From Escherichia coli (GTDB lineage Bacteria > Pseudomonadota > Gammaproteobacteria > Enterobacterales > Enterobacteriaceae): a DNA stretch of 10,225 bases. Positions 609 to 9,897 of the stretch are shown piece by piece. Position 1 is the first letter of the stretch. Each line of letters opens with the position of its first letter. The translations under genes and the position numbers were made by a program. The DNA is taken from NCBI RefSeq assembly GCF_003334255.1, contig NZ_QOWU01000085.1; one strand, given 5' to 3'. The notes under the pieces were generated by a model, which ran no database searches, was not told where the DNA came from, and saw nothing but the letters and a program-made list of their open reading frames with translations.

Positions 609-1691
609 ATGCGTAATTACGCAACAATTTCACCTCAGTTCTGGTTAGGCGATACAGGGCGAAAACTAAGGAAGTCTGGTCCGGAATGTATGGTAGTGGC
701 GTTGTATATGATGACCTCGCCTCATTCCAATATGCTGGGCCTTTATTACCTGCCTGTTTTGTACATTGCTCACGAAACCGGACTTGCTCCTGAAGGGGCT
801 TCTAAGGGGCTTCAAATGGCTTGCGAGGCTGGTTTTTGCAGCTATGACCATGATTCTGAGGTTGTATGGGTGCATGAAATGGCAGCATGGCAGGTTGGTG
901 AATCGCTGAAACCTGGCGATAACCGTTGTGCTGGGGTAAGAAATGAATATTCCGCGTTGCTGGAAAATCCTTTTTTATCATCCTTTTATGATAGATATAA
1001 GGATGATTTCCACCTGGATGTCAGACGTGAATCATGTCGGAAAATTGAAGCCCCTTCAGAGCCCCTTTCAAGCCAAGAACAGGAACAGGAACAGGAACAG
1101 GAAAGGGATAAAACCCTTCTGGTCCATGGCGAAAAAATCGCCACGGACCCACAGGGGGATTTTTGTCCTGTTCTGACTGAACGTCCAGGACCAGATGGCA
1201 CGACACCGGAAGCAGATTCCGGGCGTTGTGTGCAGCAGGTGCTGATCGTCGAACCGGAGCAACAACGCCAACCGCAGCAGCCTGAAGCCGATTCCGCGAT
1301 GAGCGGGAAGCCGATTGGGTTAACCCGGGCGATGCCGGGACCGTCTGCGGGACGAGTTGATTATCCTGACGTGTTCGAACGGGTCTGGCGTGAATATCCG
1401 CATCGGGCAGGGTCAAACCCGAAGAAATCCGCGTTCAATGCCTGGAGGGCCAGATTACGCGAAGGGGTGTCACCGGATGTCGTGCTGGATGGCGTGAGGC
1501 GTTACGCAAGATACCTGGAGGCTACCGGGAAAGCGGGAACTGAATTTGTTCAGCAGGCATCGACGTTTTTTGGCCCGAACAGGAATTTCGAAAATCCGTG
1601 GTCGCTGCCGAAGGCTGGCGCAGTCAGCCTGCGTTGCGTGAATCACATTTCTGAACCGGACACCGAAATTCCGCCGGGTTTCAGGGGGTAA
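609..1691 (+). CDS. Phage replication initiation protein (O-like functional analogue; resembles the so-called replication protein 15 type of lambdoid prophages)
   Basis: 360 aa with SD GAGGGG 4-5 nt before the ATG. It follows cII and is immediately followed by a DnaC-like loader gene. It contains an internal AT-rich segment with inverted and tandem repeats (origin-like) and an acidic (QE)n linker between two domains. The family assignment is from memory only. Confidence 0.6.
   Translation: MRNYATISPQFWLGDTGRKLRKSGPECMVVALYMMTSPHSNMLGLYYLPVLYIAHETGLAPEGASKGLQMACEAGFCSYDHDSEVVWVHEMAAWQVGESLKPGDNRCAGVRNEYSALLENPFLSSFYDRYKDDFHLDVRRESCRKIEAPSEPLSSQEQEQEQEQERDKTLLVHGEKIATDPQGDFCPVLTERPGPDGTTPEADSGRCVQQVLIVEPEQQRQPQQPEADSAMSGKPIGLTRAMPGPSAGRVDYPDVFERVWREYPHRAGSNPKKSAFNAWRARLREGVSPDVVLDGVRRYARYLEATGKAGTEFVQQASTFFGPNRNFENPWSLPKAGAVSLRCVNHISEPDTEIPPGFRG
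977..1007. repeat. Perfect 9-bp inverted repeat (atcatcctt / aaggatgat) with 13-nt AT-rich loop, inside the replication gene
   Basis: Read directly: atcatcctt-ttatgatagatat-aaggatgat, in an AT-rich stretch (about 960..1010) flanked by short direct repeats tcctttt(tt)at. Confidence 0.7.
1077..1106. repeat. Hexanucleotide tandem repeat (GAACAG)x4 plus one degenerate unit, in frame within the replication gene
   Basis: gaacag gaacag gaacag gaacag gaaagg, translated as the QEQEQEQE linker of the 360-aa protein. Confidence 0.9.
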
Positions 1692-1697
1692 TCAGCC

Positions 1698-2438
1698 ATG
1701 AAAAACATTTCGACAGGAGGGATTCTTGAACGGGTGCGCCGTCTGGCACCACCGCACGTGGCAGCACCGTTCCGGACGACCGACGAATGGCGGGAATGGC
1801 AACTGGCTGAGGGCCGGAAGCGCAGCGAGGAAGTTAACCGCCAGAATCACCAGACGCGGGTTGAAAAAATCCTGAATCGTTCGGGCATCCAGCCGCTTCA
1901 CAGGAAGTGCTCATTCGGGAACTACCGGGTGCAGAACGACGGTCAGCGCCATGCTCTGAGCCAGGCGAAATCCATTGTCGATGAATTGATGACCGGTTAT
2001 ACAAACTTCGTGTTCAGCGGGAATCCGGGAACCGGAAAAAATCATCTGGCGGCGGCTGTGGGTAATCGTCTGCTGAAGGCCGGTAAATCCGTGATAGTGG
2101 TCACCGTGGCGGATGTGATGAGCGCGTTACATGCCAGCTATGACGACGGACTGTCAGGGGAAAAATTTTTGCGTGAACTGTGCGAAGTGGACCTCCTGGT
2201 TCTTGACGAAATTGGCATCCAGCGTGAGACGAAAAACGAGCAGGTGGTACTGCACCAGATTGTTGACCGCCGGACGGCATCACTGCGCAGTGTCGGGATG
2301 CTGACAAACCTGAATCATGCCGCAATGAGCACGCTTCTTGGTGAGAGGATTATGGACCGGATGACCATGAACGGTGGTCGTTGGGTGAATTTTAACTGGG
2401 AGAGCTGGCGGTCAAACGTTGGACGTCAGGGTATGTGA
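1698..2438 (+). CDS. DnaC-like replicative helicase loader (AAA+ ATPase, IstB/DnaC family)
   Basis: 246 aa with Walker A GNPGTGKNHLAAA and Walker B LLVLDEIG. The start is 7 nt after the stop of the initiator gene, with SD AGGGGG upstream. This is the classic position of the lambda P analogue in phi80/Rac-type replication modules. Confidence 0.85.
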   Translation: MKNISTGGILERVRRLAPPHVAAPFRTTDEWREWQLAEGRKRSEEVNRQNHQTRVEKILNRSGIQPLHRKCSFGNYRVQNDGQRHALSQAKSIVDELMTGYTNFVFSGNPGTGKNHLAAAVGNRLLKAGKSVIVVTVADVMSALHASYDDGLSGEKFLRELCEVDLLVLDEIGIQRETKNEQVVLHQIVDRRTASLRSVGMLTNLNHAAMSTLLGERIMDRMTMNGGRWVNFNWESWRSNVGRQGM

Positions 2439-3249: not shown

Positions 3250-3681
3250 ATGACAAGAGCATTTACACCAGAAGAGCGGGAAAAAATTAAGGGGCTGATC
3301 GTGGAGTTCGTACGCCTTAACGGACGAGGCACGATTCGGCAGTTATCGGATGAAATTGGTGTCAGTCATGCGTCTGTCGGTCGTTTATGCATGGAGCTGG
3401 CCGCCAGTGGTGATGTTTACAATTCCGGTTACGGAGTATTCCCGTCTGAACAGGCTCGTAAGGACTGGCAAAATGCCCGCAAAAAACTCTCAAGGGCAAA
3501 GTCGAAGAAACCGGTTGTCGTTGATCCAGACCTTATCCGGGCATTACCAGATGGGGAAATACGGCGCTACGACAGACGCTACAACACAATTTGTCGCGAG
3601 TGCCGTAACAGCGAAACGATGCAGCGTGTGCTGGCATTCTGGCGAGGGAGTGCAGAGGGATTGATGTTCTCCCCGTCGTGA
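3250..3681 (+). CDS. Hypothetical HTH-containing phage protein
   Basis: 143 aa from ATG 3250 with SD GGAGG 5 nt upstream (the track ORF starts 6 nt earlier at a GTG). The N-terminus IRQLSDEIGVSHASVGRLCMEL is HTH-like; the C-terminus has a CxxC pair. Confidence 0.55.
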   Translation: MTRAFTPEEREKIKGLIVEFVRLNGRGTIRQLSDEIGVSHASVGRLCMELAASGDVYNSGYGVFPSEQARKDWQNARKKLSRAKSKKPVVVDPDLIRALPDGEIRRYDRRYNTICRECRNSETMQRVLAFWRGSAEGLMFSPS

Positions 3682-4388: not shown

Positions 4389-4632
4389 GGATATTCCTCG
4401 CGAAATTAAAGAAATTAACGAAATCATTGAGGTTACTGATCGCCCCGAGTTTACCCTCATGCGTCGTTATGAAACAGGAACCGACGAACAAAAATACATC
4501 ATGGTTGCAGCATTGGCTGTGATGGCGATAGAAAGGGAGCGAAGGGAAAAGGACGTAATGGTTATTCCTGAGAGAAATGATTCACCGGATTTGAGATGGC
4601 AGGAGCCGGAGTGGGATGTGGTAATCCGGTGA
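4387..4632 (+). CDS. Small acidic hypothetical protein (81 aa), divergent from the DUF4145-like gene
   Basis: ATG at 4387 with SD AGGAG 9 nt upstream, ending at a GC hairpin shared with the convergent antitoxin gene. Its start codon overlaps the minus-strand start inside the palindrome CCATGG. No family recognised; it could be spurious. Confidence 0.35.
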   Translation: MDIPREIKEINEIIEVTDRPEFTLMRRYETGTDEQKYIMVAALAVMAIERERREKDVMVIPERNDSPDLRWQEPEWDVVIR

Positions 4633-4686: not shown

Positions 4687-4995
4687 TTAAACGAAGCGGA
4701 TCTGGAGTTTTTTCCCTGTAGCACGGGCGAATTTTTTCAGTGTGGCAAATGATGGGCCGCTTGTACCTGATGCAAGATTGCTTTCCATTCTGGTTATCGC
4801 AGTCGCTTTTGTTCCCATACGTTCAGCAACTTCAGCCTGGGTTAAGCCAGCTTCTTTTCGTGCTGCCAGCATTTCATCAAGTAGTGCGAATTCATCGGCG
4901 ATGGCGTCGTATTCTGCTTTTACTGCGGGGTTAGACAACATTTTTTCTACCATATCATCGTGTGTCATGGTAGGTGGGGTACGTTTACCAGTCAT
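4687..4995 (-). CDS. HTH (XRE-like) antitoxin of a type II toxin-antitoxin pair
   Basis: 102 aa with a strong SD AAGGAGG 6 nt upstream on the minus strand. The HTH GLTQAEVAERMGTKATAITRMES is preceded by a helical N-terminal region. Its start overlaps the 3' end of the upstream toxin gene by 11 nt. Confidence 0.8.
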   Translation of the reverse strand: MTGKRTPPTMTHDDMVEKMLSNPAVKAEYDAIADEFALLDEMLAARKEAGLTQAEVAERMGTKATAITRMESNLASGTSGPSFATLKKFARATGKKLQIRFV

Positions 4996-5326
4996 GCTTA
5001 ACCTCCTTCATTCTGGTTTCAGCTTTTCTAAGCTCGGCAGGTGGAGTTTTTTGCGTTTTCTTTACAAAGCTATGCAACATAATGATTCGCTTTCCTTTTA
5101 GCGTGCAGTAAAAAACACGCCCTATGCCTTCCGAGCCCTTAAGGCGGATTTCAAACAAACCGTCGCCAAATGCCTCTGTATGCGGGGAACCAAGATTAGC
5201 TCCGTAAATACGCATTTTCTCCGTGTACCGAATGTACCGGGCTTGTAAGGTCTCAGGAAGAGAAAGGATCTCAGCTTCAACCTCGTCACTGTAGTATTCG
5301 ATAATGTAGTTCATGAGAGTAAACAT
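4985..5326 (-). CDS. RelE/ParE-superfamily toxin (Gp49/HigB-like) of a type II toxin-antitoxin pair
   Basis: 113 aa from the ATG at 5326. The C-terminal half GRVFYCTLKGKRIIMLHSFVKKTQKTPPAELRKAETRMKEV fits the Gp49/HigB-type pattern. The toxin-first gene order and 11-nt overlap with the antitoxin are typical of HigBA-type modules. The GTG-initiated 42-codon extension in the track ORF is not expected for this family. Confidence 0.8.
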   Translation of the reverse strand: MFTLMNYIIEYYSDEVEAEILSLPETLQARYIRYTEKMRIYGANLGSPHTEAFGDGLFEIRLKGSEGIGRVFYCTLKGKRIIMLHSFVKKTQKTPPAELRKAETRMKEVKHDW

Positions 5327-5386: not shown

Positions 5387-5448
5387 CTTCGCACGCCAGC
5401 AAAATCTGGCGTCGGGATTAGGAACCCCGGATAGAAACCGCGACAGAG

Positions 5449-5470
5449 ACACGCCGCGAGCGTGTTTTTT
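5449..5470 (+). terminator. Intrinsic terminator (acacgc-cgcga-gcgtgt followed by TTTTT)
   Basis: 6-bp stem, 5-nt loop and T5 tract, read directly. It lies about 60-80 nt downstream of the + strand promoter, which would delimit a short transcript. Confidence 0.55.
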
Positions 5471-5633
5471 ATTGTCGTATGCACACGCACATCTGAATTA
5501 TGGTGGGGCGTATAGGGGAGCTGAAAAGCTCGCCGGTTGGTTTCCCGGTAGTTCCTAACCCTGTACGTCTCGCCACCCGATGATTAGGAACCTGACGGTG
5601 GTGATAGTTTAGAAACCACTCGAGGGCGTCATT

Positions 5634-9068: not shown

Positions 9069-9383
9069 TCCAAACTGAGCCGTAGCCTCTGGGTGTCCTG
9101 AATTCATCAGTGATAGTTACGCTGCGGCCTTCTACATACGATTTTTGTGAAAAGCGGGTGGCAAGAGGCTGCGAAATTTTTAAATACCTCACAATTCCAC
9201 AGCTTGATGATTGTCTGGCTGCCGGAGAATTTGTTAAAAATTGCATCGCGTGGTGAATCCCCCTCAGCGGCGGGGCATCTGGCAAAGTGTATGATCCAGC
9301 GAACATGCAAATTCAGTAGCCAGGCTGAATTTACCGGGAGGCACCTGGCACCATGCGACAGACAGAAATTAGGCTATACTTCA

Positions 9384-9406
9384 GCCCCTCTCCGGAGGGG
9401 CTTTTC
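9384..9406 (+). terminator. Intrinsic terminator of unit 1 (gcccctc-tccg-gaggggc followed by TTTTC)
   Basis: Perfect 7-bp GC-rich stem, tccg tetraloop and T tract, read directly. Confidence 0.75.
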
Positions 9407-9596
9407 TGTGCAGGATGTGTCACAGTTTCCTGAATTCTGAGTACTGTCCTGTTACTCAGGGTGCTATATTTTCTGACGTGATGAAAGTCTGCCGGAAGGC
9501 GGAACGTATCGGAAATGACCCAGTAGAGAAAACGTTGACTCAGATACCGATGCTGAGTTACCGGGAAACCGGCATCACATGACCGCTATCCTTCCA

Positions 9597-9619: not shown

Positions 9620-9866
9620 ACTGCAGAAAACAGTTTTCCCGTAAAATGCCACGTTACTCACAATTCAGGCTGGCGATTATTGTCTGGCCAGCGGGAAGTT
9701 TGTTAAAAAAATATGGCATGGTGAATCCCCCTGTGCGGAGGGGCATATCAGCGACAGGTGTTTGGTCACACCCCTTATCCTTTCTGGTGCGGGTTCAGGT
9801 GCTGATACTGAACTCACCGGGAGGCACCCTGCACCATGCATGAACGGTACATAGCGCTACTCTCCA

Positions 9867-9890
9867 GCCCCTCTCCGGAGGGGCTTTCTT
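9867..9890 (+). terminator. Intrinsic terminator of unit 3 (gcccctc-tccg-gaggggc followed by TTTCTT)
   Basis: Stem and loop identical to the unit 1 terminator, read directly. Confidence 0.75.
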
Positions 9891-9897
9891 GTTGGAT

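Follow-up and report, generated by a model that had tools for sequence, protein, structure and literature searches.

A Candidate Replication Origin inside the Initiator Gene

A 10,225-bp stretch of Escherichia coli DNA (contig NZ_QOWU01000085.1; hereafter the window) was analyzed around a gene encoding a prophage replication initiator of 360 amino acids (aa). The window is the early-right part of a lambdoid prophage resembling Shiga toxin (Stx) phages. The segment at approximately 790-1110, inside the initiator coding sequence, is probably an in-gene iteron replication origin of this prophage, judging from its sequence. Multiple short sites were found there at helical periodicity and above chance, and the sites were constrained as DNA beyond the needs of the protein. 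An origin was further supported by the slot of the initiator gene directly upstream of the helicase/loader gene, by the minimum of DNA stability that the window has between the two clusters of sites, and by parallel in-gene repeats in the Tritos initiator gene and in ydaU of the Rac prophage.

Eleven-Base-Pair Units in the Window

Four copies of an 11-bp unit, GAAG-GGG/CCC-CTTC, occurred in the initiator gene. They formed two tandem pairs with a period of 11 nucleotides (nt) and differed in the central triplet (Table 1). The two clusters were approximately 255 bp apart, and the spacer of approximately 235 bp between them held an AT-rich stretch. With a period of 11 nt, successive units of cluster 1 are read in different frames (EGAS and KGLQ).

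The units of cluster 1 had position weight matrix (PWM) scores of 20.0 and 17.2, against 14.8 for the 95th percentile of the best score in shuffled sequence. Allowing up to one mismatch, AAGGGGCTT matched the window eight times, four of these within the two clusters, and none of 200 shuffles reached eight matches. In 50 kb of Escherichia phage PhiR5_2 the exact 9-mer occurred three times, always inside the initiator gene. Both Tandem Repeats Finder and motif counts returned the 11-mers at 1047-1068 and 792-813 as the significant repeats of the region.

The original prediction had placed the origin at 940-1110 and had pointed to short direct repeats flanking an inverted repeat in that interval. 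A direct repeat, ATCCTTTT, was indeed found at 967-974 and 980-987, where it overlaps the inverted repeat. This repeat is genuine, though weak. Significance attaches instead to the 11-mers, one pair of which lies outside 940-1110. The fragment 900-1150, which had been proposed for cloning, would omit cluster 1 because 792-813 falls outside the reported interval. Repeats of GAAGCCGATT in the initiator linker were tried as weak iterons and rejected, as their PWM scores (2-3.7) were at background level.

Conservation of the Units across the Family

Viral contigs were searched with the N-terminal 200 aa of the initiator, which gave 80 loci at 53-100% identity. From these, a comparative set of 52 representatives was used, with less than 85% aa identity to each other and GC contents of 35-67%; family-wide results below refer to this set. 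Hosts of the family include E. coli, Klebsiella, Acinetobacter, and Rhizobium, and its members are named only 'DNA-binding protein' or 'hypothetical protein' in databases.

Both clusters were present at matching gene positions in 52 of 52 representatives. Across approximately 3.6 kb per locus, exact AAGGGGCT was found 77 times at gene nt 150-199, 78 times at gene nt 400-499, and approximately 12 times elsewhere. Adjacent units were spaced by exactly 11 nt in 111 of 119 cases, and the distance from cluster to cluster was 230-278 nt (median 256).

Codon choice at the sites was close to fixed. The mean major-codon fraction was 0.89 at sites versus 0.52 elsewhere, and normalized codon entropy was 0.20 at sites versus 0.88 elsewhere (Mann-Whitney p = 3.6e-8). 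The fixed codons were GAA (100%), GGG (100%), AAG (100%), GCC (100%), CCT (91%), and CTT (92%). At residues of like conservation outside the sites, codon choice was almost free.

On the coding strand, the center of cluster 2 was CCC in 38 representatives, GGG in eight, and mixed in six. In 14 of the 52, the center triplet was flipped in some or all cluster 2 units, so that the peptide was altered while the GAAG/CTTC flanks were kept. Variant spellings tended to co-occur across both clusters of one genome (odds ratios 9.5 and 21, p ~0.02, uncorrected for phylogeny). One extra 11-bp unit was present in cluster 2 of E. coli G6/7 (L088) and G8 (L090); it shifts the frame of the initiator gene, which RefSeq carries as a frameshifted pseudogene. 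Taken together, position, 11-nt spacing, frozen codons, differing frames, and center flips show that selection acts on the DNA of the 11-bp sites beyond coding needs.

Could the 11-mers instead be DNA without a function of its own, reflecting protein constraint or short conserved junctions of phage-module recombination? Cluster 1 does encode a highly conserved E-G-A-x-K-G-L, and cluster 2 lies with the Gln-Glu (QE) array at a mosaic junction. However, synonymous codons were fixed at the sites only, in hosts of 35-67% GC, and the same word appeared in different frames. Flips of the cluster 2 center altered the peptide, and cluster 2 falls in a disordered segment of the protein. Cluster 1 is not at a junction, and taxa so divergent are unlikely to belong to one recombining pool. 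An origin of the pattern in protein constraint or recombination alone is thus highly improbable.

Pairing of the oppositely oriented clusters as a long-range mRNA stem that regulates translation or stability is hardly credible. Positions 790-802 and 1047-1059 are complementary over 13 nt (100%), as expected of a stem, but eight of the 52 representatives had GGG on the coding strand in both clusters, which are then oriented alike. Pairing is impossible in these eight, and the motif was still kept. Shine-Dalgarno-like pausing or an internal start at M70 was rejected as well: codon 70 is Met in this lineage only, and the mRNA of cluster 2 mostly has the C-rich spelling.

Across the family the N-domain and the sites stayed constant; variation affected the C-terminal part and the gene that follows. 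The downstream genes encoded a DnaC-like loader, a DnaB-like helicase, a P-like loader, a primase-helicase, or a product of unknown type. Such a pattern would be expected of a DNA-binding domain that travels with its in-gene sites as one origin-specificity module.

AT-Rich Spacer and Inverted Repeats

An AT-rich stretch in the initiator gene had been part of the original prediction, and the measurements agree. The GC content drops to 0.28 at 941-1000, and by nearest-neighbor energy every other 40-mer of the window is more stable than 970-1009 (GC 0.23, z = 3.6). The stability minimum within the gene, again taken over 40 nt, fell between the clusters in 27 of the 52 representatives. The spacer is a plausible unwinding element.

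The perfect 9-bp inverted repeat reported at 977-1007, with arms ATCATCCTT (977-985) and AAGGATGAT (999-1007), is present, and 12 of 13 pairs form when its arms are extended. No other short-loop inverted repeat of the window is as good; at least 12 pairs were reached in one of 40 Markov simulations, and all 200 synonymous recodings of the peptide fell short of it (z = 3.7). A repeat that beats every recoding and sits in the least stable DNA speaks for an initiator-binding and origin role of the inverted repeat itself, together with its flanking direct repeats and the hexamer array. Against this, the family gave a mean z of 0.25 relative to synonymous recodings, with p <= 0.05 in three of 52 representatives, which equals the three control regions. 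The arms encode poorly conserved residues with ordinary third-position variability, and C983A breaks or weakens the repeat in the close relatives STEC1589, 2009C-3133, and L007. The spelling of the hexamers varies among homologues, pointing to conservation of the protein. These elements are therefore very unlikely to be the initiator-binding and origin elements.

The best inverted repeats of the homologues were loosely clustered in the same AT-rich codons, and the repeat at 977-1007 is, by this comparison, lineage-specific and polymorphic. The predicted arrangement of an origin in the initiator gene, with iterons beside AT-rich DNA, received strong comparative support through the 11-mers; the inverted repeat was not conserved. 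A second inverted repeat, just 3' of the hexamer array, was invariant in six close relatives (1121-1149).

Hexamer Array and Other Linker Repeats

The hexamer GAACAG had been counted at four to five copies and taken to encode a (QE)n inter-domain linker. Both statements hold, with 4.5 perfect copies encoding SQEQEQEQEQER. The array had also been proposed as an in-frame slippage hotspot, to be checked by comparing copy numbers, and relatives had three to seven copies: 3, 4, 5, 6, and 7 were all found among aligned, near-identical E. coli prophages. Matches to 760-1230 in 78 E. coli genomes were 465 to 494 nt long versus the 471-nt query, mostly in 6-nt steps. Family-wide, the array was present in 3 to 12 or more copies with varied spelling, namely GAACAG, GAGCAG, CAAGAG, and CAAGAA. 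These spelling changes place its conservation at the protein level. Homology with the Tritos initiator starts at aa 165. Copy number and homology breakpoint together mark the hexamer array as a slippage hotspot and as a junction where N-modules were exchanged.

A second copy of approximately 70 nt of the initiator linker (1258-1350) lies upstream of the gene, at 509-578. Close relatives have two tandem copies of approximately 90 nt upstream, inside a 72-aa 'hypothetical' open reading frame (ORF); in the window a 90-nt deletion leaves a single copy. Occurrences of the 10-mer GAAGCCGATT fall in two frames (535, 1209, 1284, and 1307), and deletions and duplications end within it. In Tritos and L012, four copies of GAAGCCGATT are arranged as two pairs.

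Initiator Protein

The initiator begins with a winged-helix N-domain (aa 1-~140), followed by a disordered segment that contains the (QE)n linker (aa ~141-165). Next come a repeat-rich linker and a C-terminal domain (aa ~245-335), and the protein ends in a 20-aa tail resembling the tails of DnaT and YdaU. The protein matched PHROG 1701 ('DnaD-like helicase loader') over its full length (residues 1-360, E = 2.6e-151). A Pfam scan of the initiator returned zero families even at E <= 10, with no DnaD match behind the 'DnaD-like' name of PHROG 1701.

In the predicted structure the N-domain is a CRP-like winged-helix fold, with an H1-S1-H2-H3-S2-wing-S3 topology and structural similarity to solved winged-helix domains. 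Standard winged-helix topology predicts that the helix at aa 61-73 is the recognition helix; iteron cluster 1 (codons 62-68) encodes this helix. Residues 141-156, which hold cluster 2 and the QE array, form a tail past the last N-domain helix with a low predicted local distance difference test score.

Similarity to DnaT and YdaU was confined to the end of the protein. In BLASTP against Rac YdaU (DUF1376), the last 20 residues alone aligned (70% identity, E = 2e-6). The DnaT model NF002770 gave 15.6 bits against a cut-off of 201, with residues 337-360 alone aligned, and DnaT chains in the PDB matched the tail alone at E = 0.0085 to 0.026. The tail, LRCVNHISEPDTEIPPGFRG, is presumed to be a docking peptide for the DnaC-like loader.

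Proposed Mechanism

From these features we infer initiator binding, a melting site, and a replication start at this locus. The winged-helix N-domain would bind the four 11-bp iterons. With a period of 11 bp, neighboring sites face the same side of the DNA helix. The initiators bound at the two clusters may then associate and wrap or loop the spacer of approximately 235 bp, and the resulting strain would melt the AT-rich stretch. The C-terminal domain and the DnaT/YdaU-like tail would bring the phage DnaC-like loader (1698-2438) and host DnaB. The (QE)n segment would serve as a flexible tether between the DNA-binding and recruiting parts, hypervariable through slippage.

A broader proposal is offered tentatively, as a possibility that falls somewhat short of an even chance. 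A widespread, unnamed initiator family (Enterobacteria, Acinetobacter, Rhizobium, and others) may use GAAG-SSS-CTTC as a near-universal iteron, with one cluster encoding the recognition helix of the protein itself.

Comparison with Known Systems

The locus resembles ori-lambda and the O protein in that the candidate origin lies inside the initiator gene and combines repeated putative initiator sites with an AT-rich tract. By analogy with O, the N-terminal part would bind DNA and the C-terminal part would recruit the loader, and the gene occupies the same slot as in the lambda annotation, between cII on one side and the loader and ren on the other. The original prediction went further and called the initiator lambda-type, which the searches reduce to an analogy. 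Unlike lambda O, the initiator had no match to Phage_rep_O (PF04492) or any other Pfam family, and the N-domain alignment showed no homology to lambda O in hhalign (probability 0.12). Its partner is DnaC-like and not a P-type loader. The lambda origin has four 18-bp iterons in a single mid-gene array, unlike the 11-bp units found here at an 11-bp period in two pairs. In lambda and Stx-phage O-type origins, as in this family, a change in iteron number alters the protein (PMC7466680).

The Tritos initiator is a replisome organiser of the Phage_rep_org_N type. It has the C-terminal half in common with the initiator of the window (64% identity from aa 165), and its N-domain is unrelated. Two GTCACG clusters of four and five copies with a 10-nt period were found in Tritos (L085) at 1337-1375 and 1597-1645, 260 nt apart. 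They lie inside the region coding for the N-domain and are followed by a low-complexity array, (ACAGATAAAGAT)x3. By this comparison, Tritos has the same architecture on a different iteron. The locus may likewise be comparable with G38P/oriL of SPP1, another replisome-organiser system with repeats in its initiator gene.

The ydaU-ydaV-ydaW genes of Rac are similar in the 85% identity of the loader to YdaV, in the YdaW-like gene that comes next, and in the common 20-aa tail. The body of the initiator, by contrast, is not homologous to YdaU (DUF1376) outside the tail, and the two genes have different repeat words. An active origin, oriJ, has been reported for Rac (PMC3945230); the accessible literature gave no position for it at the sequence level. 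The ydaU gene of the Rac prophage in E. coli K-12 (L004) carries repeats of the AGATGTTCAAACA type together with a perfect inverted copy of 11 nt at 3505-3578, and these are candidate oriJ iterons.

Compared with the winged-helix Rep initiators of iteron plasmids (RepA, RepE, and pi), the initiator has one winged-helix domain instead of two, its sites are in the gene, the units are 11 bp versus approximately 19-22 bp, and there is no sequence homology. Six PLSDB records matched in a search for plasmid replicons with the initiator; the one inspected was a linear prophage fragment and uninformative. Similarity to E. coli DnaT extends over the last ~25 residues and to gene order, as the gene precedes a DnaC-type loader in the manner of dnaT-dnaC. 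The rest of the initiator is unrelated to DnaT, so the label 'primosomal protein I' overstates the likeness.

The principle of an in-gene origin is already known from lambda, replisome organisers, and iteron plasmids. No description of the present origin was found in the accessible literature. In the libraries searched, the initiator family and its 11-bp site appear to be undescribed, as do the arrangement in two clusters and a site that overlaps recognition-helix codons.

Autoregulation and Points against an Origin

Many initiators of iteron plasmids autoregulate through their own iterons. The 11-mers could accordingly be operator or roadblock sites for autoregulation of the replication operon, bound by the initiator or by another phage protein, with the true origin elsewhere. 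The sites do lie within the transcribed early-right operon. In four related representatives (L021, L027, L031, and L034), one additional core (AGCCCCTT) was observed 25-36 nt upstream of the initiator start codon, a hint of autoregulation. Most representatives, however, lacked a site near a promoter, and the exact 9-mer occurred nowhere else in the 50 kb of PhiR5_2. Two clusters approximately 255 bp apart and deep in a coding sequence would be an odd operator layout, and position, the Tritos parallel, and the AT-rich minimum fit an origin better. An operator function with the origin elsewhere is unlikely. The two roles are compatible, and the conserved sites could serve autoregulation instead of, or besides, initiation.

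Beyond this dual possibility, several observations weigh against an origin at the 11-mers. In lambda the single array adjoins the AT tract, whereas the two clusters here bracket AT-rich DNA. In 13 of the 52 representatives the least stable DNA was just 3' of cluster 2. The AT dip of the family is mild (-0.05 GC), although negative in 88% of representatives and conserved in position. AT-richness was rejected as a signal at the DNA level, since GC content at third codon positions hardly deviates and the dip is, family-wide, mostly a matter of amino acid composition. The unwinding site is therefore uncertain. DnaA-box and integration host factor (IHF) consensus sequences were absent from the window, and a literature search for the 11-bp motif returned nothing relevant. 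The homologues share ancestry, so that the statistics do not come from independent samples; this concern is limited because other synonymous sites are near saturation.

Gene Context and Other Features of the Window

The gene order was cII, a small ORF, the initiator gene, the DnaC-like loader, a YdaW-like gene, and a Ren-like gene. Positions 450-1700 were 99.6% identical to Escherichia phage PhiR5_2 and approximately 98% identical to Shigella phages 75/02 Stx and POCJ13 and to phiSTEC1589-Stx1c. In close phage relatives the initiator gene is labeled 'replication protein O', 'primosomal protein I', or 'DNA-binding protein'. The product of the gene at 1698-2438 was assigned as DnaC-like by NF009043 (490.8 bits) and PHROG 50.

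TABLE 1. Features of the initiator locus (window coordinates).
Feature	Position	Strand	Remarks
cII	149-445
Small ORF	460-588
Initiator gene, 360 aa	609-1691	+
Iteron cluster 1 (candidate)	792-824	+	GAAGGGGCTTC 792-802, TAAGGGGCTTC 803-813, degenerate third unit AAATGGCTTGC 814-824
AT-rich, low-stability spacer between clusters; candidate DNA-unwinding element	940-1010	.	GC and stability
Inverted repeat ATCATCCTTTTAT / ATATAAGGATGAT	977-1007	.	12/13 pairs, 5-nt loop
Iteron cluster 2 (candidate)	1047-1068	-	GAAGCCCCTTC 1047-1057, AGAGCCCCTTT 1058-1068; CCC center on coding strand
(GAACAG)4.5 array, perfect copies	1077-1103	+	Encodes (QE)n linker
Second inverted repeat GGTCCATGGCG-AAAAA-TCGCCACGGACC	1121-1149	.	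11/12 pairs; strong; just 3' of hexamer array
Linker segment	1206-1350	+	GAAGCCGATT repeats at 1209, 1284, 1307
C-terminal tail LRCVNHISEPDTEIPPGFRG	1629-1688	+	14/20 identical to Rac YdaU; DnaT C-terminus-like
DnaC-like helicase loader	1698-2438	+	85% identical to Rac YdaV

A strong hairpin like that of an intrinsic terminator (11 pairs and a T-run) was found on the minus strand at 394-421, within the 3' end of cII; its placement is reminiscent of the terminator of the lambda oop antisense RNA. A promoter scan of 1-1800 matched no sigma-70 consensus, and an Rfam search of 1-2600 gave no match. Elsewhere in the window, Rfam matches above the gathering score were two copies of the STnc100 small RNA, isrK, and C4 antisense RNA (9218-9411, 9687-9896, 5393-5470, and 5496-5580). 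By synteny with the PhiR5_2 annotation, the ORFs at 4687-4995 and ~4985-5215, both on the minus strand, correspond to a HigA antitoxin and a HigB toxin. A short tandem repeat, GAAATTAAA x2.6, was found at 4402-4424.

Implications for Prophage Replication

Stx-converting and related prophages with this module have no mapped origin, and existing work covers lambda O/P-type modules only. The 78 matched E. coli genomes include prophages of O104:H4 outbreak strains. The candidate origin at ~790-1110 and the site GAAGGGGCTTC are defined well enough for direct origin cloning, footprinting, and work on replication control. Features that commonly serve as cues, here an inverted repeat and an AT-rich stretch, can be specific to one lineage and lie within an origin region without being its conserved core. 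The locus also offers a clean example of a putative binding site that overlaps the codons for the very domain that presumably reads it. If the family-wide proposal is true, protein and binding site would be locked together, which could explain letter-perfect conservation across hosts of 35-67% GC. Conservation in the family provides a simple sequence rule to find origins in this class of prophages, and under the same proposal origins would be predictable from sequence alone in many prophages.

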